Part shown: in pieces, positions 778-46,723 of the stretch
Position numbering within the stretch: position 1 is the stretch's first letter
Layout of the letters: each line of letters opens with the position of its first letter
Source: a virus
Length of the DNA: 64,000 nt
IMG/VR virus record: IMGVR_UViG_3300018877_000004
Location: 5,500-69,499 of that record
Strand: one strand, 5' to 3'
The notes under the pieces: generated by a model
Told to the model about the DNA's origin: nothing
The model's input: only the letters and a program-made list of their open reading frames with translations
Database searches by the model: none
Translations under genes and position numbers: made by a program

Positions 778-1653
778 ATGCCAAACTATAACGCAAAATT
801 TACAGAACAACAGAAACCCGATCGATTACGGCATCGACTGCTGAGCAGATCAGAAGAGAGAGCCTTACTAAGGCTGGCACAAAAAGGCGATCGTCGTGCT
901 GTTGCCCTGCTTGTCGAATGCAATCAAAAGTTTGTTGCCCGTATCGCCAGTCGCTATCAGACCCAGGGCAAGCATCTGTCGTTCGATGATTTGATGCAAG
1001 AAGGATCGTTAGGGCTAATTCGTGCGATCGAAAAGTTCGATCTCAGCCAAAACACTCGCTTGCTTACCTACGCCAAGTTGTGGATAAACCAAAAGCTGCA
1101 ACGGGCGATCGCCAAGCAGCAGTACACCATCCGTCAACCTTTCGACACTCGCTACCTGCAATGGCAAATCCAGCAGTTAGCACCTCAACTGCAAGAACAG
1201 GGCTTGCCCGTCACAGTGCAGAACCTCGCAAAACGCTTGCAGGTGCAGGAGAAGCACGTTAAGCGGGCGATCGACCTAAAAGCAATTGATTGTTCGATCA
1301 GCATCGATTGCTTGGATGGCGGCATTCCTGGGCCTGCTCTGCCAGTTGAGGACGATTTCGATCGCGCTGTGATGATTGACCGGATTGAGCGGGCGATCGT
1401 GAATTGCTCCACTGATGACTGTGTGCGGCAAATGGTGCGGATGCGGATCGGACTCGCGACGGGTGAGCCGATGGGATTTCGTGAAATCGCTAGTCGCCTA
1501 AATCGCAGTGTGTCTTGGGCAAATGCCGCATACGTGCGGGCGCTGAAACGAATACAGCCCCAGATTGAGGATTTGCGCGAAGGACGAGAACACATCAAGG
1601 GGAGGCATTTGACGCCCTGCCGCGATCGTAGCCGTGTACAGGAGGTAGCTTAA
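778..1653 (+). CDS. RNA polymerase sigma-70 factor (RpoD/group 2-like)
   Basis: Region 1.2 LLSRSEERAL; region 2 DDLMQEGSLGLIRAIEKFD...TYAKLWINQ; region 4 HTH MGFREIASRLNRS. Confidence 0.92.
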   Translation: MPNYNAKFTEQQKPDRLRHRLLSRSEERALLRLAQKGDRRAVALLVECNQKFVARIASRYQTQGKHLSFDDLMQEGSLGLIRAIEKFDLSQNTRLLTYAKLWINQKLQRAIAKQQYTIRQPFDTRYLQWQIQQLAPQLQEQGLPVTVQNLAKRLQVQEKHVKRAIDLKAIDCSISIDCLDGGIPGPALPVEDDFDRAVMIDRIERAIVNCSTDDCVRQMVRMRIGLATGEPMGFREIASRLNRSVSWANAAYVRALKRIQPQIEDLREGREHIKGRHLTPCRDRSRVQEVA

Positions 1654-14092: not shown

Positions 14093-14284
14093 TTGATTGA
14101 AATGGCTAAACAAACAGAATCTGCGGCACAAATTTTTCTGCGCACTGCCAGCAATTATCAGCAGCATGGTACGTGCTACCCAGAGCGATTGCATTTACTC
14201 GACAAGCTCAAGAAGCACGTAGAAAACCAGTACCCAGAAGACGACAGACTGAAAGCGATCATTGATGAATTGAAGGCGTGTTAA
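14093..14284 (+). CDS. Small hypothetical protein, convergent with the integrase
   Basis: AAGGAGA RBS; last gene of the early operon. Confidence 0.5.
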   Translation: MIEMAKQTESAAQIFLRTASNYQQHGTCYPERLHLLDKLKKHVENQYPEDDRLKAIIDELKAC

Positions 14285-15693
14285 ACCCTCATATCGATCG
14301 ATTGGATCACCCCATCGATAATCACAACCTTGTTAATGAAGCGCCTAAAAAGCTGCTGCCTGTCTCTGGCATTTAAGTCAGTCCAGAATCCGGGGTCAGT
14401 TCCTACACTCGCGAACAGAGTTCTGACCCCTAAATCTATACTTCCATTTTGGTTGTTTAGTGCTTGCGCTTGAGCCTTAAGCCTGACAAGTTTTTGGTTT
14501 AACAATCCGTCCTCATCTCCCATTTCACCGATCATTGCCTCGATCTGCTGTATCTGCCGCAAAAGCTTTAATACTTGTGGATTGGGCGCAGCTTCTTCTG
14601 CATCTAAGTCGACTGCTGCTGCTTCTGCAATTTCTGCCGATCGCTGGCATAACGCCAAAATCACTGCCTGCTCAATGAGGTCGATCGATACTCCCTTTCC
14701 AGGTGCGTTGTAGCAGGGAAGGCTGGCAATTTTGCGACTGCGGCTGCGGCAATAAGCGTAATGATAATATTTGTCCTGCTTGACACTGTGACTGCGGGAG
14801 ATGCCCATTCGATAGCCACAGCGCCCACAGACCAGCAGAGACGAAAGAGCATAGACAAACCGCTGCTGATTGCTTCCCGTCCGGTATGCAGCCTTAGTGC
14901 TGCCCATCATGTGCCGAATCCCGTCTTGATCTGCGTCAGTCAGCAGGCGATCGTCTGGGTGGGTGTTGTAGGCAATGCGCCCCCATTCCCCATAGTTTTT
15001 GCTGCTGATGTTCTGGTATGGCGTATGACCGCACAGTACCGGACTCATGACCCATCGCCCCAAGCCAGCAGGTGTCCAGCGCTTGCCTAGTTCTGTATCG
15101 ATCTGGCGACACGCTTCTGCCATGTTTCCACCGCAGGAACGAATGATCTCGATCGCTCTAGCTGCTGGGATGCTCAAATCCAATCGATACCGCTCGTCTT
15201 GCCGCAAGTATCCCCACGGTGCGCCCGGATTTGCTTTTTGCTGATGGCGAAAATACTCAAAGCCGTCTCGAATTCGCTTCGAGAGCATTCTGACTTCGCC
15301 TTCTGACTGGACACCCGCAATCATGAATTGCTCCCATTCTGTCGGGTTGGCAAAGTCTACGGCGCGACCTTTGAGGATTTCCCACAGTTCGATCCCAGAC
15401 TGTTCAAACATCTTGGCAAGCCGTGCATTCATTTCTGCATGGCGCGTAATTCGATCGCAACGGTCAATCACCAAGCGATCAATTTGGCGTGGGCTGAACA
15501 GCGCCAACAGCTTCTCAAAGTCGGGACGATCGTCTTTGCGCCCGCTCTGGACATCAACAAACAGTAGGTTATTGTCTGGTTCGATGCCGAAGCTTCGCAC
15601 CTGCCGATCGAGCCGAAACAGTTGCCGCTCTAGGGCTGAGGAGTCGCGTGATTGCTCTTTTCTAGAAACTCTTGCGTATCGTGCAACACGCAT
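14281..15693 (-). CDS. Large serine recombinase / integrase (XisF-like architecture)
   Basis: YARVS catalytic Ser, SGRKDDRP, DRCDRITR, recombinase domain, CGRCG Zn ribbon and coiled coil. The ATG at 15693 is the likely start. Confidence 0.95.
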   Translation of the reverse strand: MRVARYARVSRKEQSRDSSALERQLFRLDRQVRSFGIEPDNNLLFVDVQSGRKDDRPDFEKLLALFSPRQIDRLVIDRCDRITRHAEMNARLAKMFEQSGIELWEILKGRAVDFANPTEWEQFMIAGVQSEGEVRMLSKRIRDGFEYFRHQQKANPGAPWGYLRQDERYRLDLSIPAARAIEIIRSCGGNMAEACRQIDTELGKRWTPAGLGRWVMSPVLCGHTPYQNISSKNYGEWGRIAYNTHPDDRLLTDADQDGIRHMMGSTKAAYRTGSNQQRFVYALSSLLVCGRCGYRMGISRSHSVKQDKYYHYAYCRSRSRKIASLPCYNAPGKGVSIDLIEQAVILALCQRSAEIAEAAAVDLDAEEAAPNPQVLKLLRQIQQIEAMIGEMGDEDGLLNQKLVRLKAQAQALNNQNGSIDLGVRTLFASVGTDPGFWTDLNARDRQQLFRRFINKVVIIDGVIQSIDMRV

Positions 15694-15709
15694 GATCACC
15701 ACCGATAAT

Positions 15710-17862: not shown

Positions 17863-18093
17863 TCAAGCCGCTAGAGTTTCGCTGATTTCTTCGTCATCCT
17901 CAACCCAAGGATCAGCGCCTTCGACAAATCGATCGCACTGCTCATCCGCCCAGCGATACCGTTCGCAGGTTTGGCAGAAGGTTTGATTCTCTCCTGCCGC
18001 CAAGCGTCGATCGGCGTCCTGAGTGTCTGCGATATAGGGCAAGCGCGGTTGAGTTTGGCAGTTGAGCGGATCGTGATCTTGCATGGTACTCAC
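17863..18093 (-). CDS. Small Cys-containing hypothetical protein
   Basis: Overlap with the upstream gene; CQTC motif. Confidence 0.6.
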   Translation of the reverse strand: MSTMQDHDPLNCQTQPRLPYIADTQDADRRLAAGENQTFCQTCERYRWADEQCDRFVEGADPWVEDDEEISETLAA

Positions 18094-18296
18094 ATTGTTA
18101 ACATTCCGCGATGGCTAATAGTCAGCAATTCTGATTCTGGATATTTCTCTTTGACACGCGCGATCGCTGCTTCCATGTTTGGCGCTGTTAGCAACTCACT
18201 GCCGTTAATTACATGAAAGCTGCCGTCCGGCTTTTTATGCTTATCAGATAGTCGCTTCAGTTGAACGTGCCAAACGCTTAAATTTTCGCTATTCAT
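18090..18296 (-). CDS. Hypothetical protein
   Basis: Operon context; RBS. Confidence 0.6.
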   Translation of the reverse strand: MNSENLSVWHVQLKRLSDKHKKPDGSFHVINGSELLTAPNMEAAIARVKEKYPESELLTISHRGMLTM

Positions 18297-18323
18297 ATCG
18301 TCCCTGCAAAGCTCCCTCGCATT

Positions 18324-19103
18324 CTATCCAACCGTCTCCAGATCCTCCCAAGCCTTAGCGCGACTGAAGTAAAAGCCCTGCGCGTAATCAACCCCGATCG
18401 ACTTGCAGAGTTGGAGCTGAATATCATTCTCAATCCCCTCAGCAACCGTTTTTAGGCTGAAGACTTTCGCCAGCTTGACGAAGCATTCGTAAATCGCGAT
18501 CGCCCCTTCATCCTTTTGATCAGTCGGCATAAAGAAGCGATCGATTTTCAAAAAGCTAATAATGCCTTGCAAGCTGCTTAGCCGTAGCATTGAAGAATGT
18601 TGAGTGCCAAAGTCATCAATGCCCAATTCTGCCCATTCTGAGAGAGGCATAAGCGCCTGCTGAAGGATGGCTAGATCTCTCGTGGCAACCGCATCTTCCG
18701 TGACTTCAAACTTGATTTTTCCAACAATTTGCAGCCTTAAAAGTGACTCTTTAATCTTTAGGTAAAACTCAGGACTTATTAATTGATTGGGCGATAGATT
18801 TAGGGCGATATATCGATCGTTTTGCATCGCACTTGCCTTCTCGCAGGCTTCTTGGAATACCCACTCAAAAAGCGGTTGCTGCCACAAAAAATCGCTTGCC
18901 CGAAAATCGGCAATTCCTGGTAGAAACGCCGCAGGAAATAGCAAGCCTCGATCGGGGTGCTGCCACCTAATCAGCCCCTCGTAGCCGCTTACAGGTAAAT
19001 CTTCGGACTGTAGGGAAACGATCGGCTGATAGTGCAGCCGCAATTCGTTTTGCTCGATCGCTCTCAAGAGTTCGCGGGCACTGGGTTGCTGGGTTGCGGG
19101 CAT
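18324..19103 (-). CDS. Stand-alone EAL-domain c-di-GMP phosphodiesterase
   Basis: YQPIV, EGLIRW, NLSP, FEVTE, IDDFGT, LKIDR, VAEGIE and AQGFYFS: all canonical catalytic positions appear present. Confidence 0.93.
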   Translation of the reverse strand: MPATQQPSARELLRAIEQNELRLHYQPIVSLQSEDLPVSGYEGLIRWQHPDRGLLFPAAFLPGIADFRASDFLWQQPLFEWVFQEACEKASAMQNDRYIALNLSPNQLISPEFYLKIKESLLRLQIVGKIKFEVTEDAVATRDLAILQQALMPLSEWAELGIDDFGTQHSSMLRLSSLQGIISFLKIDRFFMPTDQKDEGAIAIYECFVKLAKVFSLKTVAEGIENDIQLQLCKSIGVDYAQGFYFSRAKAWEDLETVG

Positions 19104-19121
19104 GAGGGGCGATCGATTTCG

Positions 19122-19559
19122 TTATTTAGAATCTTGAGTGTCTATGACAATACGAGTTTTGCCATTGTGACCATGCAAGATTTTGACGGTTTCAAGATTT
19201 GGATACCAAAAGGTTGACTTGATTTCACTTGTCCACTGAAGCACGCAGCCAGCATGCAGAAAATCACAACCAACAGCAACCACACCTGTCCCACTTACAC
19301 CCGTTGCATCATCATCACGCACCAGTTGAAAAGTATAGGTGTGAAGGCCGAGGCAGATTTCTTGGTATGACGGCTCATATTCTTCAATTAATCGGTTTGG
19401 AATCTTCAATTGAATTGCTTCAAAAGATTCAAGACTGGGATAGGTTCCATGTGTTTTATGCTCACCACACCATGCGATCGCTACTTGCCCGTCAGGTAAA
19501 ACACATCCGTCTGCCAGTCTTAATCCTGATGCGCTGTCTACTAATTTAATTATTTTCAT
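19122..19559 (-). CDS. Phage hypothetical protein with an internally duplicated domain
   Basis: Both halves share L(V)..D...G...A.G......W......YP.LE. The second half has GVSGTGVVAVG...HGHNGKT. Confidence 0.7.
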   Translation of the reverse strand: MKIIKLVDSASGLRLADGCVLPDGQVAIAWCGEHKTHGTYPSLESFEAIQLKIPNRLIEEYEPSYQEICLGLHTYTFQLVRDDDATGVSGTGVVAVGCDFLHAGCVLQWTSEIKSTFWYPNLETVKILHGHNGKTRIVIDTQDSK

Positions 19560-19579
19560 TTTCGATCTCCAATTGTTTG

Positions 19580-20245
19580 CTATTTGCTGTTGGCATATCG
19601 ATTGGCTTTTTGTTCTTGCAGCCAGTCGTAGCGCATTTTCACAGTACGCGCCCCTAGCAAGGCGTTGTGGTTGCCGTCTGTTTCGAGGCTAGGAGGTAGG
19701 CGATCGGATGGGATGCCGAGTTCGTCTTCTGCGGTCTGGATGATGTCTCTAGTACGCATAGGAAAGCCTTGCGGCAAGTCCATCATGGTTCCAAAAATTT
19801 GACAAAAGGTGACGTGATCGTATGCGCTCCATTCGCCATAAAATTCAGGGAAATCAACAGTATTGTCTTTATTGGCGATGTACTTTGTTTGCTGCCTGCC
19901 AATAAATCGATCCCATTGTCCTATCCATCCCGATCGAATCCATTGCGCGGTGTAGCGTTCGTAGCCTACAAATCTTGCGATGCCGTCTCTAATTTGCGAT
20001 CGGCTTTTCCATGCTCTCGCTTCTTCCCGTTCACGAGGCGTCATCTCCATCGGGTTGCGCATTTTAGGCGGCAGGCAGGCGATCACATTGTCTTTCACCC
20101 ACTGACTAGCATGGCGTGGGTTGAACTCGGTAGAAACGGCATAGAACTCCCTGCCGTCTTCGCTCACGATTCCAATACTGATAAGTTCTATCGGGTGTTT
20201 GTGGCCACGCTCGATGAATTCCAGGTCTATATAAAATCTAGTCAC
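19580..20245 (-). CDS. Rv2179c-like (DUF5051) DEDDh 3'-5' exonuclease-family protein
   Basis: FYIDLEF, LISIGIV, WVKDNV, AYDHV and HNAL motifs; GTG start near 20245 is likely. Confidence 0.85.
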   Translation of the reverse strand: MTRFYIDLEFIERGHKHPIELISIGIVSEDGREFYAVSTEFNPRHASQWVKDNVIACLPPKMRNPMEMTPREREEARAWKSRSQIRDGIARFVGYERYTAQWIRSGWIGQWDRFIGRQQTKYIANKDNTVDFPEFYGEWSAYDHVTFCQIFGTMMDLPQGFPMRTRDIIQTAEDELGIPSDRLPPSLETDGNHNALLGARTVKMRYDWLQEQKANRYANSK

Positions 20246-20531
20246 TACTGCCCTCGCTACTTTGTTCTTTCGTTTCCAGAAACCCACTTAAGCCTAAACC
20301 AGACGCACCTGCTGCTATTACGCCGATCGCAATGCGTTCCAACATCTGTCGATTCTCAGGGCTTTGGATGGTTTGCTGGCTGAGCAAAAGCCCGATCGCC
20401 AAGCACCCAAACAGGGCAGAGTTGAGTTTTTGGATCAGCCGAATTTGCTTCACTTGCAGGCGATCGCTTACCTCTAGTTTTGCTACAGCGGCTTCTAATT
20501 CTGCAAGGCGTTCAAGGGGTGTATCTGGCAT
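20238..20531 (-). CDS. Small membrane protein (coiled coil + 2 TM); holin candidate
   Basis: Two hydrophobic helices and a charged C-tail; in the same operon as the endolysin. Confidence 0.5.
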   Translation of the reverse strand: MPDTPLERLAELEAAVAKLEVSDRLQVKQIRLIQKLNSALFGCLAIGLLLSQQTIQSPENRQMLERIAIGVIAAGASGLGLSGFLETKEQSSEGSSD

Positions 20532-20543
20532 GGCGATCGCCTC

Positions 20544-20846
20544 CTAAAGATTATCTTCCTGTTGGGAAAAGCTGTGCCAGTCGGGAAGTGCAATCGTTTG
20601 ATCTTTTAGCTCGTGCCAACAGTCGCCTAAAAATTGGATTTTGCCATCTGTCACGAAAGAATGGCAGCGATTGACTGCAAATTGCTCACCTTTTTCATTC
20701 GGATGCCCTGTAAGAACAGAAGGCGTAAAAGTCGGATTTTCAAGACTGCCATTCCAACCCCAAACGCCTTTAGCGATCGCGTGAGCGCATTTGCATCCAG
20801 GACACTGAAACCAAACACGAGCTGCGGTTTCATGAACCTTGTTCAT
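20544..20846 (-). CDS. DUF6527-like Cys/His-rich protein
   Basis: CPGC...H, WGWNG...PTFTPSVL, CHSFVTDGKIQFLGDC.H. Confidence 0.7.
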   Translation of the reverse strand: MNKVHETAARVWFQCPGCKCAHAIAKGVWGWNGSLENPTFTPSVLTGHPNEKGEQFAVNRCHSFVTDGKIQFLGDCWHELKDQTIALPDWHSFSQQEDNL

Positions 20847-20858
20847 AGCGATCGACTC

Positions 20859-21284
20859 CTATGCTAATAACTTGAACAACTGACTCCAATCCTCCCCCCA
20901 ACAAAGAGTTACGAGGTTGCAAACTTGGTGCTGCCACTGGTCGATCGCAATTGCAACCCAGAACGGTGCGGACGGTTTAGAGATGCGCCAATCTTCCCAA
21001 TCTTGATTGTAAAGACGCACCCAGAACGCGCCGAGATTCAGGCGATCGATTACAGTGTGAGTCCCAACAATTACCACTTCTTTCCACACATCCGCCCACT
21101 CTAGCGGGTTCCAAGGATTCCACAAATAGAACAGCACAAACGGGATGGAGTAGATCAGGCTATGCAGAAATGCGATCGCCCAACTTTGGCGCTTATTGTT
21201 AGCCAAGAAGCTGTTTTGCAGTGCGAAATCTCCTGCATTGTGGAGCAGTCTTTCAGTGGCAGCGATCGCGATGATTTTCAGCAT
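20859..21284 (-). CDS. DUF3307-family membrane protein
   Basis: H..GDF.LQ, HSLIY, THTVID and DQWQH motifs. Confidence 0.8.
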   Translation of the reverse strand: MLKIIAIAATERLLHNAGDFALQNSFLANNKRQSWAIAFLHSLIYSIPFVLFYLWNPWNPLEWADVWKEVVIVGTHTVIDRLNLGAFWVRLYNQDWEDWRISKPSAPFWVAIAIDQWQHQVCNLVTLCWGEDWSQLFKLLA

Positions 21285-21286
21285 GG

Positions 21287-21646
21287 TTACTCCGTCTTCT
21301 CGTCAATTCCAACCAAACGCCTGATTTCTGCCATATCTTCGCGCTTAACTGCTTCAGTCAGCATTTGATAGGTTGCTGCATCAAAAACATGCTCACGCTT
21401 TTCGATTTTATTCATGTGCGGAACTCCTACAATTGGCCCTTCGTTGTCAATCGCTTCTTGGCAGGTTTCGGCTTCTTCGATCGTGTCGTGCTGATGACTG
21501 CATAAGCCATGTATTCCACCTCCTTCGTCAGAAGTTGCAACTTTGCGATATTTGCCTGAACCAGTGCCTTCGTTGTTCGCAATTTCTAAAGTTTGTACCC
21601 ACCAAACCATGCTATTTACCTCACTTTGTTGTTGTGTCGCCGCCAT
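21287..21646 (-). CDS. Hypothetical protein
   Basis: Operon context; C.H.H motif. Confidence 0.6.
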   Translation of the reverse strand: MAATQQQSEVNSMVWWVQTLEIANNEGTGSGKYRKVATSDEGGGIHGLCSHQHDTIEEAETCQEAIDNEGPIVGVPHMNKIEKREHVFDAATYQMLTEAVKREDMAEIRRLVGIDEKTE

Positions 21647-21812
21647 ACAAACAGCGATCGTGTACCATCCCCACGTCTAATCCGTTCAGCCTATACGCTG
21701 ACCAATCTTCGCAATACGAACCAGGCGAGACGCATACACGCGATCGACAGAACAAACAGCGGTTGCCGGGAGACTTCGATCGGATGTCCTGCTGAGGCGA
21801 AAAATTAGCCAT
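21621..21812 (-). CDS. Small Zn-finger-like protein
   Basis: CLFC and HDRC motifs; operon context. Confidence 0.5.
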   Translation of the reverse strand: MANFSPQQDIRSKSPGNRCLFCRSRVCVSPGSYCEDWSAYRLNGLDVGMVHDRCLYGGDTTTK

Positions 21813-21817
21813 TGCTT

Positions 21818-22306
21818 CTATCTCATGATCTCCACATCATCGCCCTCACATCCTGCACCAATCGATCGATCGAGCGTCGGCAGAATCACGCTTCCACCTG
21901 TTTTTGTGGTCTGACAGGCAGCTACGGACGTTTGCCCGCTGTCTTGCATCACTACGACGCCACCTGAGTAGTCGCGCAGTTCAGGTGCTTCGGATTCAGC
22001 CGCGATCGTTGTGGTGGTTTCGCTGCTGGTTCCAAGTGTGTATGTGTAATCCTGATCCCGCTCTGGAATGCCGATCTCTAGGTCAGTCCAAGTGCCTGCA
22101 AAAGTAGGTTTCTCGACGCGATAGGCTTGCTGCGCTCGATTGACGCTTCCGACTGTCAATTTTGCAGATGTCTGCTTCGCTTTAGCAGCTTGATTGAGAA
22201 AAGATGGCAGCGCGATCGCTGAAAGGATGCCGATCACAACTATAACGACTAGCAGTTCAATCAAACTGAAGCCTGCTGTATTCTGACGGTTTTGCTGTAT
22301 GTTCAC
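21818..22306 (-). CDS. pilA: Type IV pilin, cyanobacterial PilA1-like
   Basis: Short leader then G|FSLIELLVVIVVIGILSAIALPSFLNQ (class III signal, Glu5), NRAQQAY, and two C-terminal Cys. Confidence 0.9.
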   Translation of the reverse strand: MNIQQNRQNTAGFSLIELLVVIVVIGILSAIALPSFLNQAAKAKQTSAKLTVGSVNRAQQAYRVEKPTFAGTWTDLEIGIPERDQDYTYTLGTSSETTTTIAAESEAPELRDYSGGVVVMQDSGQTSVAACQTTKTGGSVILPTLDRSIGAGCEGDDVEIMR

Positions 22307-23529
22307 GCAGAGACTCCTTGCTTATTGCGAGGTGGTGTTGAAATTGCTTTTTCAGGTGGTATTTTGCGGAAAATTCGCATTTTTAGCGCTTCCACCGAAG
22401 AAGCTTTGCATCGAGGATCTTGTAACCACTCTGCACCCGTTTTTGTTTCGCCCCATGCGGTGATCTTGAAAGCATTTCTTCGGGATTGAGGGCGATTAGG
22501 CTTGCGTTGATTTTTAGGTTGATCAGCTTTGGGAATGAAGCAGCAATTCTCAGGGCAATAATTCCCGTTGACATTTTTTCGCTCGATCGTCAAATCATCT
22601 TGATAGCCGTTTTGAAGTGCCCATTCTCGAAATACTTCAAAGTCTTGCCACTCTGTGCAAACGCCTATTCCCCTCCCTCCATAGTTTTTGTATGCAGGGT
22701 TTTTGGGGTTTTGACATCTCGCTGTCATGCCCTTCCAGGTTGAATAGATACGTTCGTGAGACTTTCCATGTTTGGTAACCAATTCTTTGTGAAAACACCC
22801 ACAAGATACGGTTGCACCTGATTTCAGTGCAGCAGCGCTAACGGTTTTGGTTTTTCCACACTCGCACTGGCAATTCCACTTTGCGCCCTGTCCTCTCCGC
22901 CGCTTGGCAACATCCGCCCGATCGATAACAGTCAAGCGACCAAACACCTGCCCAGTTAGGTCATGAGCCGCATTGGACACGATTTCTTTGTGCAGGCATC
23001 CACAAGACTTTGCATCGCCCTTTACAAGTGCCTGTCGTGACACCGATCGCACTGGAGAACCGCAATCGCATTGGCAAATGTAATTGGGCATCCGCCCGCC
23101 ATTCTTGACTGTCTCAGTGTCATGCCGCAGAACGGTATAGCGTCCAAACCTTTGACCTGACAAGTCCGATCGCCGTTCCTGTGTCTGTCTTTTGTTAAAT
23201 GCTGTCAGCAGGCATCCGCACGATCGCGAATCACCGGATCTAAGTGAAGATCCGAAAACCGATTTTTCCCTGCCGCACTCGCAACGGCAAATCCATTTTG
23301 CAGGCTTGCCCCTTTGGGCGATCTGGTTTGGATCGCGATGCAGAACCGTCCACAATCCAAAAACCTGACCAGACAGATCTACTGCTCTGCCGCAATCCGA
23401 TAAAGTATTCATTAGGCTAGTCCCTTGGTGTTGACAAGTGGCTTGCTTAGAAAGTTGTGGTGTTTCCAGCACCGCAGCTTTCGCCATTTCTACTATTTTA
23501 AACTTTTCCAGGGTTGCTGTCAGTGTCAT
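22303..23529 (-). CDS. HNH homing-endonuclease-like protein with three tandem Cys-rich repeats
   Basis: Three DL(S/T)GQ.FG..TV...C.C.CG......SCGC repeats, then W..M..RC...YGGRGI.VC..W...TIER.NVNGNY.PENC. Confidence 0.85.
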   Translation of the reverse strand: MTLTATLEKFKIVEMAKAAVLETPQLSKQATCQHQGTSLMNTLSDCGRAVDLSGQVFGLWTVLHRDPNQIAQRGKPAKWICRCECGREKSVFGSSLRSGDSRSCGCLLTAFNKRQTQERRSDLSGQRFGRYTVLRHDTETVKNGGRMPNYICQCDCGSPVRSVSRQALVKGDAKSCGCLHKEIVSNAAHDLTGQVFGRLTVIDRADVAKRRRGQGAKWNCQCECGKTKTVSAAALKSGATVSCGCFHKELVTKHGKSHERIYSTWKGMTARCQNPKNPAYKNYGGRGIGVCTEWQDFEVFREWALQNGYQDDLTIERKNVNGNYCPENCCFIPKADQPKNQRKPNRPQSRRNAFKITAWGETKTGAEWLQDPRCKASSVEALKMRIFRKIPPEKAISTPPRNKQGVSA

Positions 23530-23696
23530 TCTTCTGCCAACTCCCACCCTGCCTGCTCTAATCGTTCCTGCGTCCCGACAGAGATTCCCGGTGCATCTCG
23601 ATGGTGAACATGGACACTCTGCCCGTTGATCCGCGCGATCGTCCCTCTGTCACCCGTTCGCGAGTTTTTTAGGTGATCGCCCTTGCGCCAGTTCAT
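23526..23696 (-). CDS. Small beta-barrel-like protein, 56 aa (MNWRKGDHLKN...)
   Basis: ATGA-coupled to both neighbours; paralogue of 23693..23860. Confidence 0.65.
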   Translation of the reverse strand: MNWRKGDHLKNSRTGDRGTIARINGQSVHVHHRDAPGISVGTQERLEQAGWELAEE

Positions 23697-23860
23697 ACCC
23701 TTTGCCACCCCATCGACTGCAAGATTTCCTGCCGTCCCGACACTACGCCACCCTGATCAACTGCCAACACAGGCGATGACCCCAGCTCTAGCCGCACCGT
23801 TGCGAGTTGGTCGGTATTGGTGTTGCGGACGCGATCGCCGTCCTGCCAAAGCAGAGTCAT
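23693..23860 (-). CDS. Small protein, 55 aa (MTLLWQDGDRVRNTNT...GWQRV); not in the ORF track
   Basis: Starts 1 nt after the endolysin stop; ATGA overlap with the next gene; similar to that gene. Confidence 0.65.
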   Translation of the reverse strand: MTLLWQDGDRVRNTNTDQLATVRLELGSSPVLAVDQGGVVSGRQEILQSMGWQRV

Positions 23861-23861
23861 T

Positions 23862-24608
23862 TTACGCATATCGAAAAATCACCCGCTTCTTTTCTGGTCT
23901 GATATCGATGTGCAAGAAACTTGGCTGAGCTAGCCCGATCCCTTTAATGGCTGAGGTGCTTTTGACAACCTCCAGCAAGCGCTTAAAATCGCCATTTAGC
24001 GGGCGCAAATCCAAAGCGCGACCATATTTGTGCTGCGATCGAGATGCCCCAATGTCTAAGGTGTATGGCCTGTAGGCAGAGTTAATCGCGATCGGACTGC
24101 CGAACTTCTGCCGGATCGTCCGGTACGCCGCAGCGAGTGCCAGCATGTTTTTTACAAGCCGCTCTTCGCTGCCAAAAGTTGCAGACCCGATCGGCATTCG
24201 AGTAAAGCCGCGCAGCATCTCACCCCAGGTCAGGTAAGCGCCATCAGCGATCCACTCGTTCTCATAAATTTCGCCGACTACTGGGAGAATCGCCCGCTTG
24301 CCCGATCGAGTGCCCGCAATTGGATTGGCTTTAGCTGTCAACACCTGCTGCTGCTCACTGACCTTGTGAGGCGCGTCAAGCTGCTGCAATAGTGTGATCG
24401 ACGTGCCGCCAATTAGCCCAGGATCGGACAAAGAGGCGTCACGCTTGAAATTAGCAAAAGCGGTACGAGTACGGTTGCCGATCAAGCCGTCTGCATCGGT
24501 AGGGCGATCGAGGTAGCCCCCTCTTAGGAGTTGCTGCTGCACCCACAACAGATCGACATTGCTGAGGCGATCGATCGGGCAAGCCGTGTTTAGGGTTGGG
24601 GTGACCAT
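23862..24608 (-). CDS. Endolysin: peptidoglycan-binding domain + peptidase M15
   Basis: DGLIGNRTRTA (PG-binding); INSAYR, SQHKYGRALD and FLHIDIR (M15 Zn ligands). Confidence 0.88.
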   Translation of the reverse strand: MVTPTLNTACPIDRLSNVDLLWVQQQLLRGGYLDRPTDADGLIGNRTRTAFANFKRDASLSDPGLIGGTSITLLQQLDAPHKVSEQQQVLTAKANPIAGTRSGKRAILPVVGEIYENEWIADGAYLTWGEMLRGFTRMPIGSATFGSEERLVKNMLALAAAYRTIRQKFGSPIAINSAYRPYTLDIGASRSQHKYGRALDLRPLNGDFKRLLEVVKSTSAIKGIGLAQPSFLHIDIRPEKKRVIFRYA

Positions 24609-24634
24609 GTTGCCTCAGAATTCTTGCTGACAGA

Positions 24635-24642
24635 ATTCCCCC
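24635..24642 (-). promoter_or_regulatory. Late promoter motif variant GGGGGAAT before the endolysin operon
   Basis: 27 nt from the endolysin start at 24608. Confidence 0.5.
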
Positions 24643-24673
24643 TCGCTACACTGAAGCAAATCGAGGTTGACTT

Positions 24674-25687
24674 ATGGCTGTTTCGGGTCGCAATACAACA
24701 AGAGCGCTTCACTACATTCTGGATGGTCGCACACCCATTCCGTGCCCTACTAATGATTGGGGCGTTTACACGGTTGCAAAAACTCAGGTTGGCGATATTG
24801 AAGTATCGACCGCTTTTTTTGGCGTTGATCGTCAATTTTCGGATGAGTCGGACGCCGCGCCTCTATTGTTTGAAACAATGATTTTTGGTGGTGATAATGA
24901 TGGGGATATGTGGCTAGACTCCACATGGGAGCAAGCCGAATTGCGACACCGAGAGATTGTGGCGTCGATCGATCCTGCTGCAACGGTTGTAGTTGCGCCA
25001 CCAATGCCTCTTGCTGTTGATTTTCAGCCGCAACACTGGGAAATTTGGCGGCGTGAAAGACGGGCGAGTGTGCGATGTGGCGATCGAGTGATCAACTTTT
25101 ATTTTTCAACTTTTATTGTTAGTAGTGAAGTTCTCGATGTTGATGTGTCTGCTGGCTATGTCAGCCCCTATGATCATATTGAATTGACGATCTATACCCC
25201 GAATGGCTCTTGCTTCACGCCGCGAGGCTTGATAGTAGAGGGATTGGAGATTGCGTGTCAGCTCTCGTCCCAACGGTTTGAAGTAAATGATTTGGCTCGC
25301 ACAGAGATTCGCCTAACTCCCGATCGAGGATCGTTTGCATGGGAAGTTGAGCCGCGAGTCTGTCGCTTCACCGTTACGCCACAGACGCGAACCCCGCAGT
25401 TGGACTCTTGCTTTGTTGATACGATTTTTCACGCCTCTGAGGTTGCTACTTTTTCAGCCAATTGTCGCTGCTTTAATCCCGCCGATGCTCTCAGCCCTGC
25501 CGACATCGACGAAGTTCATTCGTTTCTCGCGTCCGAGTTCGGCCTAAGTGTTGTTGCATCCGATCGCCCCAAAGCCTGCCAAGGATGCCAGAACTATCAC
25601 GGCGAGATTTACAATGGCAATCGCCTAATCTGCGGCATTCATCCCTATGGCTGGAATGATGGCGACGAATGCCCCGATCGCGCCTAA
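24674..25687 (+). CDS. Multi-domain hypothetical protein (moron-like, opposite strand)
   Basis: N-terminal VSTAF.G.D...PLLFETMIFGG phage motif; C-terminal CQGCQNYHG...CGIHPYG...CPD Cys/His motif. Confidence 0.65.
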   Translation: MAVSGRNTTRALHYILDGRTPIPCPTNDWGVYTVAKTQVGDIEVSTAFFGVDRQFSDESDAAPLLFETMIFGGDNDGDMWLDSTWEQAELRHREIVASIDPAATVVVAPPMPLAVDFQPQHWEIWRRERRASVRCGDRVINFYFSTFIVSSEVLDVDVSAGYVSPYDHIELTIYTPNGSCFTPRGLIVEGLEIACQLSSQRFEVNDLARTEIRLTPDRGSFAWEVEPRVCRFTVTPQTRTPQLDSCFVDTIFHASEVATFSANCRCFNPADALSPADIDEVHSFLASEFGLSVVASDRPKACQGCQNYHGEIYNGNRLICGIHPYGWNDGDECPDRA

Positions 25688-40810: not shown

Positions 40811-40994
40811 GCCTCATAATAATTAGGGATATTGGGCGATCGTCCGCACTGTACTCGATGATTTCTGCTCTGGTTGCCGTCGCCTTGGTAGCAGGTAGCC
40901 CGTCTGCGCCTTCATACCGGACGATCGCATACTTCCCGCCATTGGGTAGCGGATCTTTTTCGGTTGCTTCAATCCGTTCGGTGGTGTCATCCAT
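40749..40994 (-). CDS. Small acidic protein directly after MuF; candidate immunity protein
   Basis: Overlaps the MuF stop; 81 aa; PNGGKYAIVRY...ATRAEIIEY. Confidence 0.55.
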   Translation of the reverse strand: MDDTTERIEATEKDPLPNGGKYAIVRYEGADGLPATKATATRAEIIEYSADDRPISLIIMRLGDGRGGSDRTEDSDRDSAE

Positions 40995-43900
40995 TCGGGT
41001 TGCCTGCGTTCTCGATGTCTTTCAGAATTCGTCTGCGTCTTGCTTCCAGTCGATCGACTGCAATCCCTCGCTTTTGTCCGCGTTCTCTTGCTTCAATTCG
41101 CTTTTGAATTTCTAAATTAACTTCTGATAGTTCACCCTGAAGTGCTGCTAATCGTGCGATTTGGGCTTGCGCCCGATCGACCTCACCCTGTCGTCTGCGC
41201 AGGCGATCGTCTTCTTCTGCCGTCACTCTTGCCGCAACGTCAATCTGAGGGATCTGCAAGAATTCTCGCAACTGCTGATTGTATTGCTCTAGCTGCGATC
41301 GCAAGTCTGTCACGCTCAGGGCGCGACCATCCACCTCATAAATTAGCGCTGCCCCTTGATCGCGTTCACTACGCTGCTGGAGTGCCGTGGCAATGGCAAG
41401 CGCATCTTCAATCTCACGAGCGATCGCTGCTTTGGTCTGTGCTGTTTCCTCAGCAAAGCCATCACGAGCGCGTCGGTACAGTTCAGACTGATCAATGATT
41501 TGGCGCGGGTCAACATTCTCATCAGTTAGAAGCAGGTTGGCAAAGTCTTGGTTGAACTCTGCCAAATCTTCGATCAACTGATTGCCCGATCGCGCTACAT
41601 CGATCGCTCGAATCCGCTCTGGCGTCTTCAAAAGCTGTTGAATCTGGCGATCGCTTAACCTGCCCTCATCCGCCAACTCATCGCGCAACTGCTGCCACTG
41701 AGCGATTTGGGCAGCGGCTTGAGCGGTCGTAGCCTGTGCAAGCTGATCCGGGTAGTCAAGCTGCTTTTGAATCGACTGGATGCGCCCGTTTACCTGTCCG
41801 ACTAGCTTTGCTACTTCGTTGGCGGCAGACTGTAAGCGCTCGTTTGGCGTCTTCCCCGGCTGGCGCTCCAAGACGATCGCCAAATCTGAAGGCATCGCCC
41901 CTTCTTCCCAGTTGCGACTATCCAGCAGCCACGCGACTGATCCGGGACGGAGAGAGGCAAGGATCTGTAGGTTGGTGCGAACGGTTTCGACATCGCGGCT
42001 AACGATCGCTTGCAGGTTGTTAATCGCTGATTGCCGCTGAGTGCTGTAGTTGTCGGATAGCTGCTGTGTGGTGTTAGCACGAACCGCAAGCTGTGAACTC
42101 AATTCAGCGCGTAACTGTCGATACTGCTCAACCCGTTGCGGTAGCTTGCCTTGAGCGTTGCGGGTGCGCCTAATTGCACTGTATCGATCGCGCTGTTCTG
42201 TGGTTAAATCCTGAGTTTTGGTAGGCAGTCCATTCAGGCGTTGCAGCAGATCGTCTAGTTTGTCACGACTAGAATCGAGTCGCGCTGTCAAAATCTCCAG
42301 TGATTCTGCCGCCTGCGATACTTGTCGAATGCGCGGTTCTAAATCTTGGCGGTGCAAGTCTGTCACGCCCACGCCTGTAGACTGTGAGTTCACTGCTGCC
42401 CGCAATCGCTGCAAATCTCGCAACGCCTGCGATTTTTCACTCGATCGCGGCAAGTCCAGTAACTCTTTTTCTGCGGCTTCTAAATCCTGCTTTAAGCCTG
42501 TGATCGATCGTTCTACATCCCGCCGTTCTCCCTCTGTCTGCAAGGATTCGCGGCGAGTGCTGAGGTCGTTTAATGTCCGCTGTAATTCTGCGCTGTTGGT
42601 TCGCAGCTTCATTGCGGTCTGCTCAATGTTCTCGATCGCCTGTAGCTGCTTTGACGCTTGCTTGAGTTGCGCCTTAGCCGCTCGAATCTGCTGCGGTACG
42701 GTCGAGAAGTAGGGCGGATTGAGTGGATTAAGTAGCTGTGCCGCCCGCTGCTCGATCGCTTCGATTTGCGCTTCGACTCGGTTGATCGCCTCCTCTTGGA
42801 TGCGAATTTCCTGAGACGCTTGTTCCTGCTGCACCGCTGTGCGTGGCAAATCCACTCGATCGAGTGCCTGCTGAATTTTCTTGGTGCTGCGTTGCGCTGT
42901 CGCGAGTTCGTTAGCCTGCTCTCGCTGGGTGCGAATACGATCGGCAAGTGTGGCGTTGGCACTGCGCAAGTTTTCAACAATTTGCGGGCTGCGTGTATCC
43001 GGTTGTTGTGGCTCAGCGGATTGAGGTTGAAGGACACCTTTGCGAGGATGGCGATAGTCAAAGATGCGGGCGATCGCTTCGTAGCGGGCGGGCGCAAATT
43101 TCTTTAGATAGTCAGGATTTAAGAAGAACTCTTTCACCGATTCAGCAAAGTCGCGATCGGGTCGGTTCTGATACGCCATGCGCGTCTCTTGCATGGCACG
43201 GGCGTATTCAGAGCGCTCAGGTGGCGTCAGTTGTCCAAACTGCTGATACGCCCTCAGATAGCCAGCTTGCAGCAGCAGATCGTCAATCTTGGCACGTCCT
43301 CCGTAGAGCACGATCGCCCCTTCGTCGAAGGTGACCATGCCATTGACTTTAGGCGTGTTCAGCTTCAGCTTTTTGCGCCAATACTGCTCTGAAGCGTTGC
43401 GCTGTCGAGTGATATAAATGTCGCCACTGCCAAGCGCATTCTCAGGCAAGTCAAGTTCTGCCACCTTGCGCAATAGGTCAAGGGTGGGGCTGTTTTCTCC
43501 TAGTTTGGGGACGTACCAATCGACGCCCTTAAATCGAAAACGATCGAACTGTTCAGCGTCTTTTGCGCCTGGCGGTGTTGCTTCTGCTGTCTCGATCGTG
43601 CCTTGCAACTGCTCGAAAACTGCCTTGCGATAGGCTGCACCTTTCGCCTGTGCAGGCATATCCTGTCGCTTGATTTCATCGATCGCTTGCCGCAGTCGAA
43701 ACTCTGCCAGTCGTGAGGCTCCCCGATCAATCGATCGGGCTTGTTTGTAGAGGTTCCGGGCGATCTTCGTCTCTAGTGCCTGTCGTTCAACGGGTGTCAA
43801 TGGCGCAAGCTCTACGCCTGCTGGCAGCGCCAATCGCGGTAGCTCACCCCGCAGTAGTCCTTTAACGGGTTGTGCTTCAGGTAGTGCCAGCAATGGCTCA

Positions 43901-45939
43901 TATCCTGGTAGTGCTTTTGGTTCTGCTAGCCCCGGCAAGGCTTTCGGATCAGCGCGTCCGGGCAGTAATCCGGCAGCGTTACGGGCAGCAAGAACCTTTT
44001 GCGCGATCGCAGGGGGAAGCAATCGAATCTCGTCAGCACTCAGCAACAGCAGTTGCGGGATCAGTTCGTCAATCTGCCGTGCTAGTACATCGTCGTCAAT
44101 GGTTCGCTCGGTCTTGACAGGTTCAGCCGCTTCGCTCGATCGTTCTTTGCGTGGAATGTCTGTCTTCAGAAATTCTTTGATCGTGGCGACGAATTCCTCA
44201 TCAGGCAAGTACTGCTCTAATGAGTGGTTTTTGACATTGGCAAGTGGAACGCGATTGAGGGCGCTAAGCTGTGCCCACGGATCACCTGTGCCAGCGATCG
44301 TGATGCCCTGCTCTGGCGACATTTCATTGAAGCCGAAATAAGGCGACCCGATCGCAATCACCTTGGCAGTGATGCCCATCTCCTTAAGGATCTCTGCTGC
44401 CTCGAATGCCGTTGCACCGCCCGCGCTGTAGCCGATGATGTTGATCGGCTTGTCAGGATACTTTTGATGAAAAGCATAGGCTTGCGCTGCAACCCTCACG
44501 GATGCCATGTTGCGCCCTTCAACGATCGCAGTCGAAAGGAACTTCGAGAAGATCTGGCTTACCTTGCGAGGTGTGGGCGCACCGCCCGGATCTTCTACAT
44601 CGAATTCGGGAGTGCGTACCCCAATGACGCGATGCTTGGGCAATACGACTTTTTGAAAGTAGTTCGCTAGATAAATGCCTTGCCCGCCCTGCTCACCTGA
44701 AAAACCACCCACGACAAACGTCACCTGCTCATCGTTTTCGCTGGGGTCAGCTTCTACCCCTTTGCGAAACTTTTGCGACAGTTCTTGCGCCATTGTTGCC
44801 GATCGCTTAAACCCTTTGCGATAGCGCGATCGGGCGAGATAGTAGCTGCCGACTGTCGTACCTGCGACCGCTGCCCCAACCGTGAGCGCAATTAGTAGAT
44901 CGTTGTTGACCTGCTCTTGTGGAGTCTGCCGACGCGATCGATCTGTGAGCAGTTGCGCTGCTAGTTTTCCGACTGCCCATTGTTCGCCCTTAACCTGCAC
45001 TGAGCGATCGAGGTAGCCATCGACAGGCGTCCAAACTGGCTTAGGTGGCGAGATATTTGCAGCACGTTCAAAGGGCGCAACATTGCCAGCGGATTGATCT
45101 GTTGTTGTCGCTTTGACTTTTTCAGCGTGTTGCTTAACCCACTCGTTCGCTTTAGGGTCAGACGCCTCCTGTTCAAGGAAGTATGGCGAATTAAAACAAC
45201 GATCGCGCGGATGAATTACAGCAGGCGCAGCATCCACTGGGTAAACGTTGCCAGCACGATCGGCGCAGAATTTGCAGACCCTACGATCTTGCGTGGCGAT
45301 TCTTTGGACATATTGAATCCCGTATTCCTTGTATCTCGATCGAGTGGCTGAGTCTTGCGCCGAAATGATCTCAGTTCGTGCGATCGTCTCTGCTTTGCCT
45401 TTTGTTACACCTAGTCGCTGCCGCAGAAATCCAGCAACTTTTTGCGCCCCCTGCCCTTGAATTAGACCCTGAGTGATAATTACTGACGCTTCTTCACGGA
45501 AGGTCTGATCGTGCTTCTTGAGGCGATCTACTGCATCCCTAGCCGCAAATGCAGCAGCTTCGATCGGTACAGTTGCAGTTGCCTTGATAAAGCTGTCGCC
45601 CTGCTCAAGTGCTACCAACTCATCGCCTAGCGTCGTCCCCTCTTTCGAGGCAGTTGATAGCAACTTTTCATAGCGATCGCGCAACTCCTGCTCACGATCG
45701 GGGTCAATTAATATCAGTTGCGCTTGCAGATCGTTGACCAGAAGAACGCCTCGCTGAGTCGCTAGCAAGTCTGGTTTTGATTTTGCGGTGTAGTTCGGAT
45801 ACCTGCGCAATAAATCAGCTTCGAGCCGTCGATAGGAAGCGTCTAGGGCTGCATAAAGTCGATCGACTTCCGCATCTTCCATGTCTTGAAGAGTGCGATC
45901 GGTTCTTTCGATTAATTGTGCTGCCGCTTCGCCGCTCAC
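40987..45939 (-). CDS. Giant MuF / SPP1 gp7-like minor head protein with alpha/beta-hydrolase, zincin-like and coiled-coil extensions
   Basis: AETIARTE...D.RVCKFC...HPRDRC (MuF); TM segment; INIIGYSAGG nucleophile elbow; DFAESV; long coiled coil. Confidence 0.85.
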   Translation of the reverse strand: MSGEAAAQLIERTDRTLQDMEDAEVDRLYAALDASYRRLEADLLRRYPNYTAKSKPDLLATQRGVLLVNDLQAQLILIDPDREQELRDRYEKLLSTASKEGTTLGDELVALEQGDSFIKATATVPIEAAAFAARDAVDRLKKHDQTFREEASVIITQGLIQGQGAQKVAGFLRQRLGVTKGKAETIARTEIISAQDSATRSRYKEYGIQYVQRIATQDRRVCKFCADRAGNVYPVDAAPAVIHPRDRCFNSPYFLEQEASDPKANEWVKQHAEKVKATTTDQSAGNVAPFERAANISPPKPVWTPVDGYLDRSVQVKGEQWAVGKLAAQLLTDRSRRQTPQEQVNNDLLIALTVGAAVAGTTVGSYYLARSRYRKGFKRSATMAQELSQKFRKGVEADPSENDEQVTFVVGGFSGEQGGQGIYLANYFQKVVLPKHRVIGVRTPEFDVEDPGGAPTPRKVSQIFSKFLSTAIVEGRNMASVRVAAQAYAFHQKYPDKPINIIGYSAGGATAFEAAEILKEMGITAKVIAIGSPYFGFNEMSPEQGITIAGTGDPWAQLSALNRVPLANVKNHSLEQYLPDEEFVATIKEFLKTDIPRKERSSEAAEPVKTERTIDDDVLARQIDELIPQLLLLSADEIRLLPPAIAQKVLAARNAAGLLPGRADPKALPGLAEPKALPGYEPLLALPEAQPVKGLLRGELPRLALPAGVELAPLTPVERQALETKIARNLYKQARSIDRGASRLAEFRLRQAIDEIKRQDMPAQAKGAAYRKAVFEQLQGTIETAEATPPGAKDAEQFDRFRFKGVDWYVPKLGENSPTLDLLRKVAELDLPENALGSGDIYITRQRNASEQYWRKKLKLNTPKVNGMVTFDEGAIVLYGGRAKIDDLLLQAGYLRAYQQFGQLTPPERSEYARAMQETRMAYQNRPDRDFAESVKEFFLNPDYLKKFAPARYEAIARIFDYRHPRKGVLQPQSAEPQQPDTRSPQIVENLRSANATLADRIRTQREQANELATAQRSTKKIQQALDRVDLPRTAVQQEQASQEIRIQEEAINRVEAQIEAIEQRAAQLLNPLNPPYFSTVPQQIRAAKAQLKQASKQLQAIENIEQTAMKLRTNSAELQRTLNDLSTRRESLQTEGERRDVERSITGLKQDLEAAEKELLDLPRSSEKSQALRDLQRLRAAVNSQSTGVGVTDLHRQDLEPRIRQVSQAAESLEILTARLDSSRDKLDDLLQRLNGLPTKTQDLTTEQRDRYSAIRRTRNAQGKLPQRVEQYRQLRAELSSQLAVRANTTQQLSDNYSTQRQSAINNLQAIVSRDVETVRTNLQILASLRPGSVAWLLDSRNWEEGAMPSDLAIVLERQPGKTPNERLQSAANEVAKLVGQVNGRIQSIQKQLDYPDQLAQATTAQAAAQIAQWQQLRDELADEGRLSDRQIQQLLKTPERIRAIDVARSGNQLIEDLAEFNQDFANLLLTDENVDPRQIIDQSELYRRARDGFAEETAQTKAAIAREIEDALAIATALQQRSERDQGAALIYEVDGRALSVTDLRSQLEQYNQQLREFLQIPQIDVAARVTAEEDDRLRRRQGEVDRAQAQIARLAALQGELSEVNLEIQKRIEARERGQKRGIAVDRLEARRRRILKDIENAGNPNG

Positions 45940-46015: not shown

Positions 46016-46723
46016 TTGATCGTGCCCTCAGTCGCAATTGCCGCCGCTTCGATGCGATCTGCTTCCTCTGTTCGGTCAAGCATTCCTATTGCAAAACTGC
46101 TGAATCGTCACCGCCCGCTTGCATTGAAAATTGCGAGGCGAATGCAGTCGCTTTGTGGTGAACCACTAGAAGACCTAGAGCAACTTGCACTAGTTGGATT
46201 GACCAAAGCCCTTAAGGGATACGATCCGACTTTAGGGCTTAAATTTAGTTCGTTTGCTGTGCCCAGCATTCGCGGAGAAATCATGCATTTTCTGCGCGAT
46301 CATGGGGAGTTAATGAAAGTGCCGCGCCGTGCCCGTGAAACTGCGGCAAGCGTAAAAAAACAGCATCGCCAACTTGTTTCGCAGGGGCTTGATTTTCCGA
46401 TCGTTAAAGTTGCGGCGGCGATGGGGATTAAAGAGGAAGTGTGGAAGTGGCTAGAGGAGGCAACCGCTAGCAAGTCGATCGCCCCACTTGATGAGGAGTG
46501 GCAGCAGTCCGCAGAACCGCAATTTTCAGAAGATCCTGAGCATCAACCCTTGCAAGAAGCGATCGCACGCCTTCCTTTTTTGCAGTACGAAGTCACGATC
46601 GATCGCTATTACTTGGGAATGTCTGATCAGCAGATAGCAACCCACCATGACTTGAGCTTGTCCGAATTAAAGTGCTGTGAGTCTGCCGCCCTAAACGCCC
46701 TCAGAACTGCCCTGGAGTCCTAA
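46016..46723 (+). CDS. Alternative sigma factor, SigF/SigB/FliA-like (cyanobacterial group 3); start may be ATG 46052
   Basis: EPLEDLEQLALVGL.KA...YDP..G.KFSSFAVPSIRGEIMHFLRDH...KVPRR; region 4 HTH. Confidence 0.9.
   Translation: MIVPSVAIAAASMRSASSVRSSIPIAKLLNRHRPLALKIARRMQSLCGEPLEDLEQLALVGLTKALKGYDPTLGLKFSSFAVPSIRGEIMHFLRDHGELMKVPRRARETAASVKKQHRQLVSQGLDFPIVKVAAAMGIKEEVWKWLEEATASKSIAPLDEEWQQSAEPQFSEDPEHQPLQEAIARLPFLQYEVTIDRYYLGMSDQQIATHHDLSLSELKCCESAALNALRTALES

Follow-up and report, generated by a model that had tools for sequence, protein, structure and literature searches.

A phage record carries a PilA-family prepilin gene most likely derived from cyanobacterial pilins

The window analysed here, a stretch of 64,000 nucleotides that corresponds to bases 5500–69499 of a 69,499-bp linear IMG/VR virus record with a CheckV completeness of 88%, carries a gene for a type IV prepilin of 162 amino acids, 150 of which would form the mature protein. 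Our reading, which we consider an even call, is that this protein is a full-length, host-derived prepilin of the PilA family, encoded by an accessory gene and assembled by the host, and that the resulting phage-specified pilus surface excludes pilus-binding phages or protects the progeny. According to this proposal, the host PilD would cleave the short leader of 12 residues, after which the host PilB/PilC/PilMNOQ machinery would insert the phage subunit into pili, either beside the host PilA or in its place. The surface of the filament would then become phage-specified, and phages that bind pili, among them the phage's own kin or progeny, would cease to adsorb productively, which would amount to superinfection exclusion or receptor masking. 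A previous sequence-only reading of this DNA had proposed that the subunit either co-polymerises and so alters the receptor surface or has a dominant-negative effect, and on our analysis both would be plausible.

The pilin reading frame starts with a GTG codon at position 22306, which overlaps the TGA stop codon of the upstream HNH endonuclease gene by 4 nt. In two relatives, an ATG codon occupies the same start position. The leader of the window pilin, MNIQQNRQNTAG, carries a net charge of +1 and is followed by FSLIELLVV, which gives the residues G-1, F+1 and E+5. In an alignment of 120 homologues, the corresponding G12, F13 and E17 were nearly invariant, while Cys131 and Cys153, a candidate C-terminal disulfide of the D-region, were invariant in all 120. 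The window pilin keeps all residues that prepilin processing and assembly require, namely G-1, F+1, E+5, the mature P22 and the Cys pair. The features that had been noticed from the letters of the sequence were thereby substantiated: a class III signal peptide with Glu5 (cleavage before F, with matches to N_methyl and TIGR02532), a host-like ALPSFLNQ...NRAQQAY helix, which matches the conserved helix of the cyanobacterial homologues, and the C-terminal Cys pair.

The profile searches identified the window protein as a prepilin of the Pilin_GH family. In Pfam it matched N_methyl (PF07963, E 4.4e-8) and Pilin_GH (PF16734, E 1.9e-22; 80.2 bits versus a gathering threshold of 28.9), and a six-frame search gave 80.9 bits for Pilin_GH. 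The NCBIfam prepilin domain TIGR02532 scored 29.7 bits against a cut-off of 16.3. The best NCBIfam whole-family scores, all of them below cut-off, were obtained with PilA of Myxococcus (61.3 bits), GspG (49.6 bits), ComGC and PpdD. These four, which are shaft-type subunits, outscored the minor-pilin profiles GspH (32.5 bits versus a cut-off of 80) and PilV (17 versus 52.2), which failed on the window pilin and matched its N-terminus only. Membership of Pilin_GH is not to be equated with being a major pilin, because this family had no match in the control genome of S. elongatus.

An AlphaFold (AF2) model, built on the alignment of 120 homologues, had a mean pLDDT of 90.7 and comprised a helix at residues 15–65 and a sheet of four main strands. 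Thermus PilA4 and gonococcal PilE took the top ranks in Foldseek (probability 1.00, E ~1e-3). A search of representative PDB structures that was independent of Foldseek returned Thermus PilA4 (6xxd) as the best match, with Z 10.4 and an rmsd of 3.1 over 122 residues, and 1ay2 at Z 8.4 with an rmsd of 4.2 over 134 residues. Pilins or pseudopilins occupied 20 of the 21 top rows in this search, the remaining one being GspK-GspI-GspJ, a minor-pseudopilin complex of the T2SS. The BFVD library of viral structures yielded no clear match to the pilin model, its best E-value being 0.034. The window protein is thus predicted to fold as a type IV pilin. The fold itself cannot settle the distinction between major and minor pilins, since the structural matches include both major pilins and PilA-like minor pilins. 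The size of the window pilin (162/150 residues) agrees with the prepilin/mature sizes given for Synechocystis PilA1 (168/147) and PilA2 (170/147) in PMC13759059.

The genes around the pilin are those of a tailed phage. Searches of the record with Pfam and PHROGs identified a large terminase (TerL), a portal protein (DUF4055), a Gp13-like capsid protein, a tail tube protein, a tape measure protein of 1,729 aa, an M15 endolysin, a D5 primase and an SF1 helicase, while the left 5.5 kb of the record encode an HTH regulator, an SNF2 helicase and a methylase. The record is probably that of a temperate, siphovirus-like tailed phage. Two other IMG/VR records from a single metagenome, L025 and L003, carry a pilin gene at the same site. 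With phage genes on both sides, and with the same location in three phage records, the pilin is indeed phage-encoded, as had been claimed. It belongs to a same-strand block placed between the tail genes and the integrase, which reads endolysin, two small ORFs, HNH endonuclease, pilin, a 119-aa ORF, DUF3307 and DUF6527, and which continues with a small membrane protein, an RNase H-like exonuclease, a 145-aa ORF and the EAL gene. Coordinates of the principal features are listed in the table below.

Table. Features of the window that bear on the phage pilin (positions in the window)
Feature	Position	Strand	Basis
Phage prepilin gene, PilA-like, Pilin_GH family	21818..22306	(-)	ORF, Pfam, NCBIfam, AF2 model
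Shine-Dalgarno sequence AAGGAG	22314..22319	(-)	7 nt before the pilin GTG; read from sequence
Class III leader codons, 12 residues, ending in G-1	22271..22306	(-)	Alignments
HNH (homing-type) endonuclease with three Cys-rich repeats	22303..23547	(-)	phrog_374, E 3.1e-92
Peptidase M15 endolysin	23862..24608	(-)	PF08291, E 3.6e-12; phrog_894 endolysin
DUF3307 membrane protein	20859..21284	(-)	PF11750; phrog_2470 'membrane protein'
Large serine recombinase (XisF-like), probable integrase	14281..15702	(-)	Resolvase + Zn_ribbon_recom; phrog_95, E 3.2e-45
Stand-alone EAL protein, putative c-di-GMP phosphodiesterase	18324..19103	(-)	PF00563, E 3.4e-47, full-length
Group-3, SigF-like sigma factor at the head/tail divergence point	46016..46723	(+)	NCBIfam, below cut-offs

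The L025 record (94.7 kb, 94% complete) shows the gene order endolysin, pilin, DUF3307 and EAL, so that the endolysin gene, which in the window lies upstream of the pilin in the same orientation, precedes the pilin there as well. A DUF3307 gene comes after the pilin gene in each of the three phage records. The HNH endonuclease gene, whose three repeats have the form CxCxCG...SCGC, lies between the endolysin and pilin genes in the window; a homologue lies upstream of the pilin in L003 and is absent from that place in L025, which fits a mobile homing element. PADLOC, applied to the pilin and 13 neighbouring proteins, returned only weak HNH matches for a neighbouring endonuclease. The serine recombinase scored 275.5 bits against NF041201 (XisF), for which the cut-off is 375. 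L003 has a recombinase in this position that shares only 22% identity with that of the window, so the integrase module has been swapped.

Several further observations concern this neighbourhood. The 119-aa ORF between the pilin and DUF3307 (21287–21646, minus strand) is missing from both L003 and L025, and a contig from sequencing run X4 joins directly across it (21284 to 21640). Two overlapping ORFs of ~60 aa (23526–23708 and 23693–23869, minus strand) resemble paralogues and have a common pattern, consisting of an N-terminal W..GD...N..T and a C-terminal GW. Elsewhere in the window, the interval 40987–45939 (minus strand) encodes a 1,650-aa fusion of a Mu-F-like head-morphogenesis domain and a region resembling thioesterases or alpha-beta hydrolases. 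A scan for promoters and terminators over positions 18000–25000 gave counts at or below chance, with nothing specific to the pilin. Because the pilin gene stands after the tail and lysis genes in a block on one strand, and because no promoter-like site of its own rises above chance, it may be a late lytic gene rather than a gene for lysogenic conversion.

The HIP1 octamer GCGATCGC, which is a cyanobacterial signature, occurs 69 times. HIP1 sites number 1 and then 0 per 4 kb between positions 4001 and 12000 of the window, versus 2 to 11 per 4 kb elsewhere, and this HIP1-poor part, which contains the helicase and the D5 primase, may be of different origin. Sequencing run X1, a biocrust metagenome, contains 94% of the sampled sequence words, and the record may have come from this sample. 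Small shares of the words, and pieces that are 80–95% alike, occur in three more biocrust runs, which belong to the study of X1 and to one other; there was no RNA run among the sequencing runs found to contain the stretch. The capsid protein, used to look for lysogens, had only three distant matches (37–46% identity) across the 401 cyanobacterial genomes sampled and no match in three named cyanobacterial genomes. The phage probably infects filamentous soil-crust cyanobacteria.

In runs X1–X3 the summed contig depth over the pilin segment 21724–22151 exceeded that of the flanks, which fits the presence in those samples of many variants that are at least 80% alike; contig depth cannot rank genes. 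Many short contigs, 80–99% alike, pile up on the same segment in three biocrust runs, and the assemblies break there. This suggests that several pilin variants co-exist in biocrust samples.

The phage does not seem to bring machinery for assembling a pilus. Six-frame searches of the whole 69.5-kb record, which is ~88% complete, detected neither Peptidase_A24 (PilD) nor T2SSF (PilC), and the only match to T2SSE (PilB) was one of 11.7 bits to a P-loop inside the helicase gene. These negative searches agree with the view in the sequence-only reading that assembly genes are absent, and this lack supports the dependence on host PilD, PilB and PilC that had been proposed along with it. The prepilin motif was found once in the whole six-frame translation, with no second prepilin.

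With regard to its origin, the pilin most likely derives from cyanobacterial host pilins, as judged from its sequence relatives. The protein search retrieved 5,334 homologues, and all named ones are cyanobacterial. The same holds true for 76 of 76 loci from species-representative genomes, whose pilins are at most 60% identical to that of the window. A quick maximum-likelihood tree was computed from 111 mature sequences, namely the window pilin, P0002–P0030 and the pilin ORFs of L004 and L025–L101; P0031–P0120 were left out, and duplicates and rows with fewer than 120 or more than 200 residues were excluded. The window pilin fell into a 14-row clade of 162-aa short-leader proteins (SH-aLRT 97), in which the window and L025 are the only rows verified as phage-borne. 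This clade is sister to long-leader proteins, and the whole set lies inside the cellular radiation. The clade of the window is thus nested among cellular cyanobacterial pilins.

The nearest readable cellular locus, L004, carries two tandem pilin genes (their products equal P0026 and P0030), followed by two GT41 glycosyltransferase genes and by methyltransferase genes. The contig of L004 also encodes an M16 peptidase, for which the identity to other matches does not exceed 74%; the nearest named match, from Oculatella sp. FACHB-28, is 72% identical, and other named filamentous cyanobacteria follow among the matches. On the basis of these similarities, L004 is assigned to a filamentous cyanobacterial lineage. 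A GT41 gene was located directly after the pilin gene or genes in six of six cellular loci examined (L004, three Nostoc loci, Phormidium tenue and Sphaerospermopsis), which were picked from 98. In S. elongatus the major-pilin locus is reported to consist of pilA (Synpcc7942_0048/0049) and ogt (0051), the Ogt enzyme glycosylating PilA (PMC9306852). The match between the pilin-GT41 layout and this pilA-ogt locus argues for kinship with the major-pilin locus. Since the cellular relatives reside in such pilA-GT41 loci, the earlier assignment to the major, PilA-like type, as opposed to FimT, PilV, PilW or PilX, was upheld; judged by sequence, this assignment would span either a canonical major pilin or a member of the structurally similar 'auxiliary' family of the PilA4 type, as defined in PMC13759059.

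The phage pilin agrees with the cellular pilA-ogt locus, as represented by S. elongatus and by pilA/ogtA of N. punctiforme, in family, helix motif, Cys pair and size. The cellular locus differs in having a basic leader of 21–22 aa, an adjacent GT41 gene and an N-terminal helix that does not vary, and in many cases a paralogue in tandem; the phage copy retains none of these. The longer leader occurs in 102 of the 118 homologues with the motif, and the cellular leaders that we inspected begin with MKTELKAKFLQH and carry a net charge of +2 to +4. In contrast, 11 of 12 phage-clade proteins have the leader of 12 aa, with a net charge between 0 and +2. No GT41 was detected in Pfam scans of the window ORFs of at least 100 aa and of the left 5.5 kb of the record.

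A further difference concerns the pattern of conservation, for which we compared 106 cellular with 12 phage-clade proteins, omitting P0013 and P0015, which are truncated or garbled. Over residues 13–40, which cover the assembly helix, the identity is 0.98 among the cellular proteins versus 0.72 in the phage clade, and only 1 of the 28 columns varies in the former group versus 16 of 28 in the latter. For the head domain (residues 67–162) this relation is reversed, the identity being 0.48 for the cellular proteins as against 0.83 for the phage clade; compared with cellular relatives, the phage head domain is only ~36–50% identical. Judged from the aligned sequences, such helix variation could mean that the protein does not assemble as a normal subunit.

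Conceivably, the phage protein could be a subunit that poisons the pilus by entering the assembly pathway and jamming it, so that functional pili are lost. It might terminate chains, compete for PilD or the platform, or, being an unglycosylated prepilin, clog the translocon-rich membrane, and the consequence would be both the exclusion of pilus-dependent phages and a block of DNA uptake. Such an effect is in line with the loosened helix and reversed head-domain conservation, with the cut of the leader to 12 less basic residues and with the lack of a GT41 partner, and Sztanko et al. suggest the same for truncated phage PilA-like proteins (PMC12952977). The missing glycosyltransferase would also count against our own reading, since loss of ogtA is reported to prevent PilA accumulation in N. 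punctiforme (PMC9306852) and non-glycosylated prepilin is described as harmful in Synechocystis (PMC8546353). However, G-1, F+1, E+5 and P22 stay the same throughout the 13 phage-clade rows, and the helix substitutions in this clade are conservative swaps of hydrophobic or small residues. Moreover, a conserved and well-folded head domain would be superfluous for a mere poison. In the comparison of the window with L025, the 5′ half of the pilin gene is saturated at synonymous sites, as opposed to a dS of 0.70 for the head domain, and the contrast between helix and head may therefore in part reflect mosaic history rather than relaxed selection. On balance, we regard poisoning as unlikely.

A different possibility is raised by the other genes of the phage. 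The EAL gene, located 2.7 kb downstream of the pilin gene in the same block, occurs together with it in each of the three related records. Its product matched NCBIfam phosphodiesterase families below their cut-offs. Inspection of the EAL protein by eye showed EGL in place of EAL, together with the motifs DDFGT, K-x-D and EGIE. A link between c-di-GMP and motility is established in model cyanobacteria. The sigma factor at the head/tail divergence point scored 107.6 bits with TIGR02980 (SigB/F/G) and 103.2 bits with NF005644 (SigF; cut-off 261), both below cut-off. It is present in two of the three related phage records, and the copy in G001 is 94–96% identical. A second sigma factor, RpoD/MzaA-like, is encoded in the early region of the window (778–1653, plus strand). 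Transcription of pilA, the gene for the host major pilin, is described as strictly SigF-dependent in Nostoc punctiforme and Synechocystis, and in motile filaments pilA is reported to be among the most highly expressed genes (PMC6495340; PMC2532724).

The pilin, the EAL protein, which would lower c-di-GMP, and the SigF-like sigma factor could accordingly be thought of as a set that switches on or sustains pilus-driven gliding or dispersal of the infected or lysogenic filament and thereby spreads the phage through the crust. In a further version of this idea, which would go beyond receptor masking, the phage controls when, and with which subunit, the filament builds gliding pili. The joint presence of pilin and EAL in one gene block of the three records would be expected from such a set, as would the sigma factor in the window and G001, the dependence of the host pilin on SigF, and the fact that biocrust metagenomes contain most of the sampled words or similar pieces. 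Against it, the connection between c-di-GMP and motility is background knowledge carried over from model cyanobacteria, and the sigma factor, placed where head and tail genes diverge and scoring below the SigF cut-off, may simply drive late genes. In addition, the SigF promoter TAGGC-N12-18-GGTAA, a consensus from Synechocystis only, had 0 matches in the window, where 0.25 were expected and where coding sequence precedes the pilin. No GGTAA was present within ~800 nt upstream of the L025 pilin, and GGTAA alone occurred at chance level in L025. As the Synechocystis SigF promoter words were not found in the window, a regulatory link from the sigma factor to the pilin is put forward as a hypothesis only. 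We therefore consider the dispersal set to be improbable, and take an equally sceptical view of the version in which the phage controls the building of gliding pili.

We also compared the pilin genes of the related records. L025 encodes an intact 162-aa pilin that is 80% identical to that of the window, and the two genes show a dN/dS of 0.147 at a dS of 1.10 (Nei-Gojobori), which implies that the pilin is under purifying selection across a substantial phage divergence. The pilin copy of L003 is broken by several frame changes. We set aside the idea that it is a pseudogene, since the TerL, tape measure, sigma factor and EAL genes in the two records of that metagenome are likewise frame-broken; these breaks probably stem from an indel-prone assembly rather than from decay. 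A tblastn search of 50,697 GenBank phage records, at E 1e-3 and at E 10, returned only three chance-level Listeria fragments. That the pilin gene was captured from a host only recently and does nothing for the phage, as its mosaic accessory region beside a homing endonuclease, the coming and going of the neighbouring 119-aa ORF between relatives and the frame-broken L003 copy might suggest, is very unlikely in view of its intact reading frame and low dN/dS at this divergence, the existence of at least 12 distinct clusters of 162-aa sequences with a common derived leader in the phage clade, and the conserved gene position in three records.

Returning to our preferred reading, in which a host-assembled phage pilin alters the pilus surface, the supply of a pilin by a virus is a published principle. 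The sequence-only reading had stated that known phage anti-pilus proteins usually inhibit PilB rather than supply a pilin, a view that is outdated by what PMC12952977 and PMC12426801 report. In the former, the prophage protein P-FimU is described as being incorporated into pili and blocking phages, and PilA-like genes (P-PilA) are listed for Xylella prophages and for four groups of NCBI phage genomes. In the latter, pilins of the archaeal provirus SNJ2 are described as hijacking the host machinery (Xiang et al., Cell Rep 2025). PHROGs, too, already holds a family named 'pilin' (phrog_3433).

The listed P-PilA proteins are a close parallel to the present gene in type. As here, a phage genome encodes a homologue of a host major-type pilin, ~50% identical to cellular pilins and with a matching predicted fold, the phage lacks assembly genes, and a block of adsorption is the function suggested (PMC12952977). 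The P-PilA cases are proteobacterial and are listed there without testing, with the four NCBI groups belonging to non-temperate phages. The present gene differs in being a cyanobacterial Pilin_GH member with a shortened leader, a diversifying assembly helix and an EAL companion. P-FimU, from F10-like prophages of Pseudomonas aeruginosa, likewise uses the host machinery and replaces a host component, and PMC12952977 presents it as an experimentally shown, surface-changing defence against phages. FimU is a minor pilin located at the tip, whereas the present protein resembles a shaft subunit, so that stoichiometry and mechanism would differ. The SNJ2 pilins PilA1 and PilA2 are virus pilins acquired from the host; according to PMC12426801, they can become the dominant filament and have effects on motility, on biofilm formation and on how a second virus infects. 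That system differs from ours in involving an archaeal type IV pilus and a pleolipovirus, and the pili serve there as the receptor for the second virus instead of excluding it. In the literature on cyanophages and pilins, judged mostly by titles and the openings of abstracts, we found no description of a cyanophage pilin. The cyanophage case is thus new as far as we found, and has unusual derived features.

Cyanophages have been reported to bind along type IV pili (bioRxiv 10.1101/2025.09.20.677514), and it is these pili on which cyanobacteria rely for gliding, phototaxis, aggregation and DNA uptake. The idea of a phage-supplied pilin being already in print, the present case will not surprise specialists, and its practical value is modest, as a marker of a group of soil-crust cyanobacterial phages and as a testable candidate for superinfection exclusion. 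If our reading is true, the principle of replacing the receptor with a phage version, demonstrated to date for a Pseudomonas tip pilin and archaeal pilins, would reach the cyanobacteria, a major ecological group. The phage gene also represents a natural experiment in pilin design, in which the leader was shortened, the linked glycosyltransferase was lost and an otherwise invariant helix was loosened.
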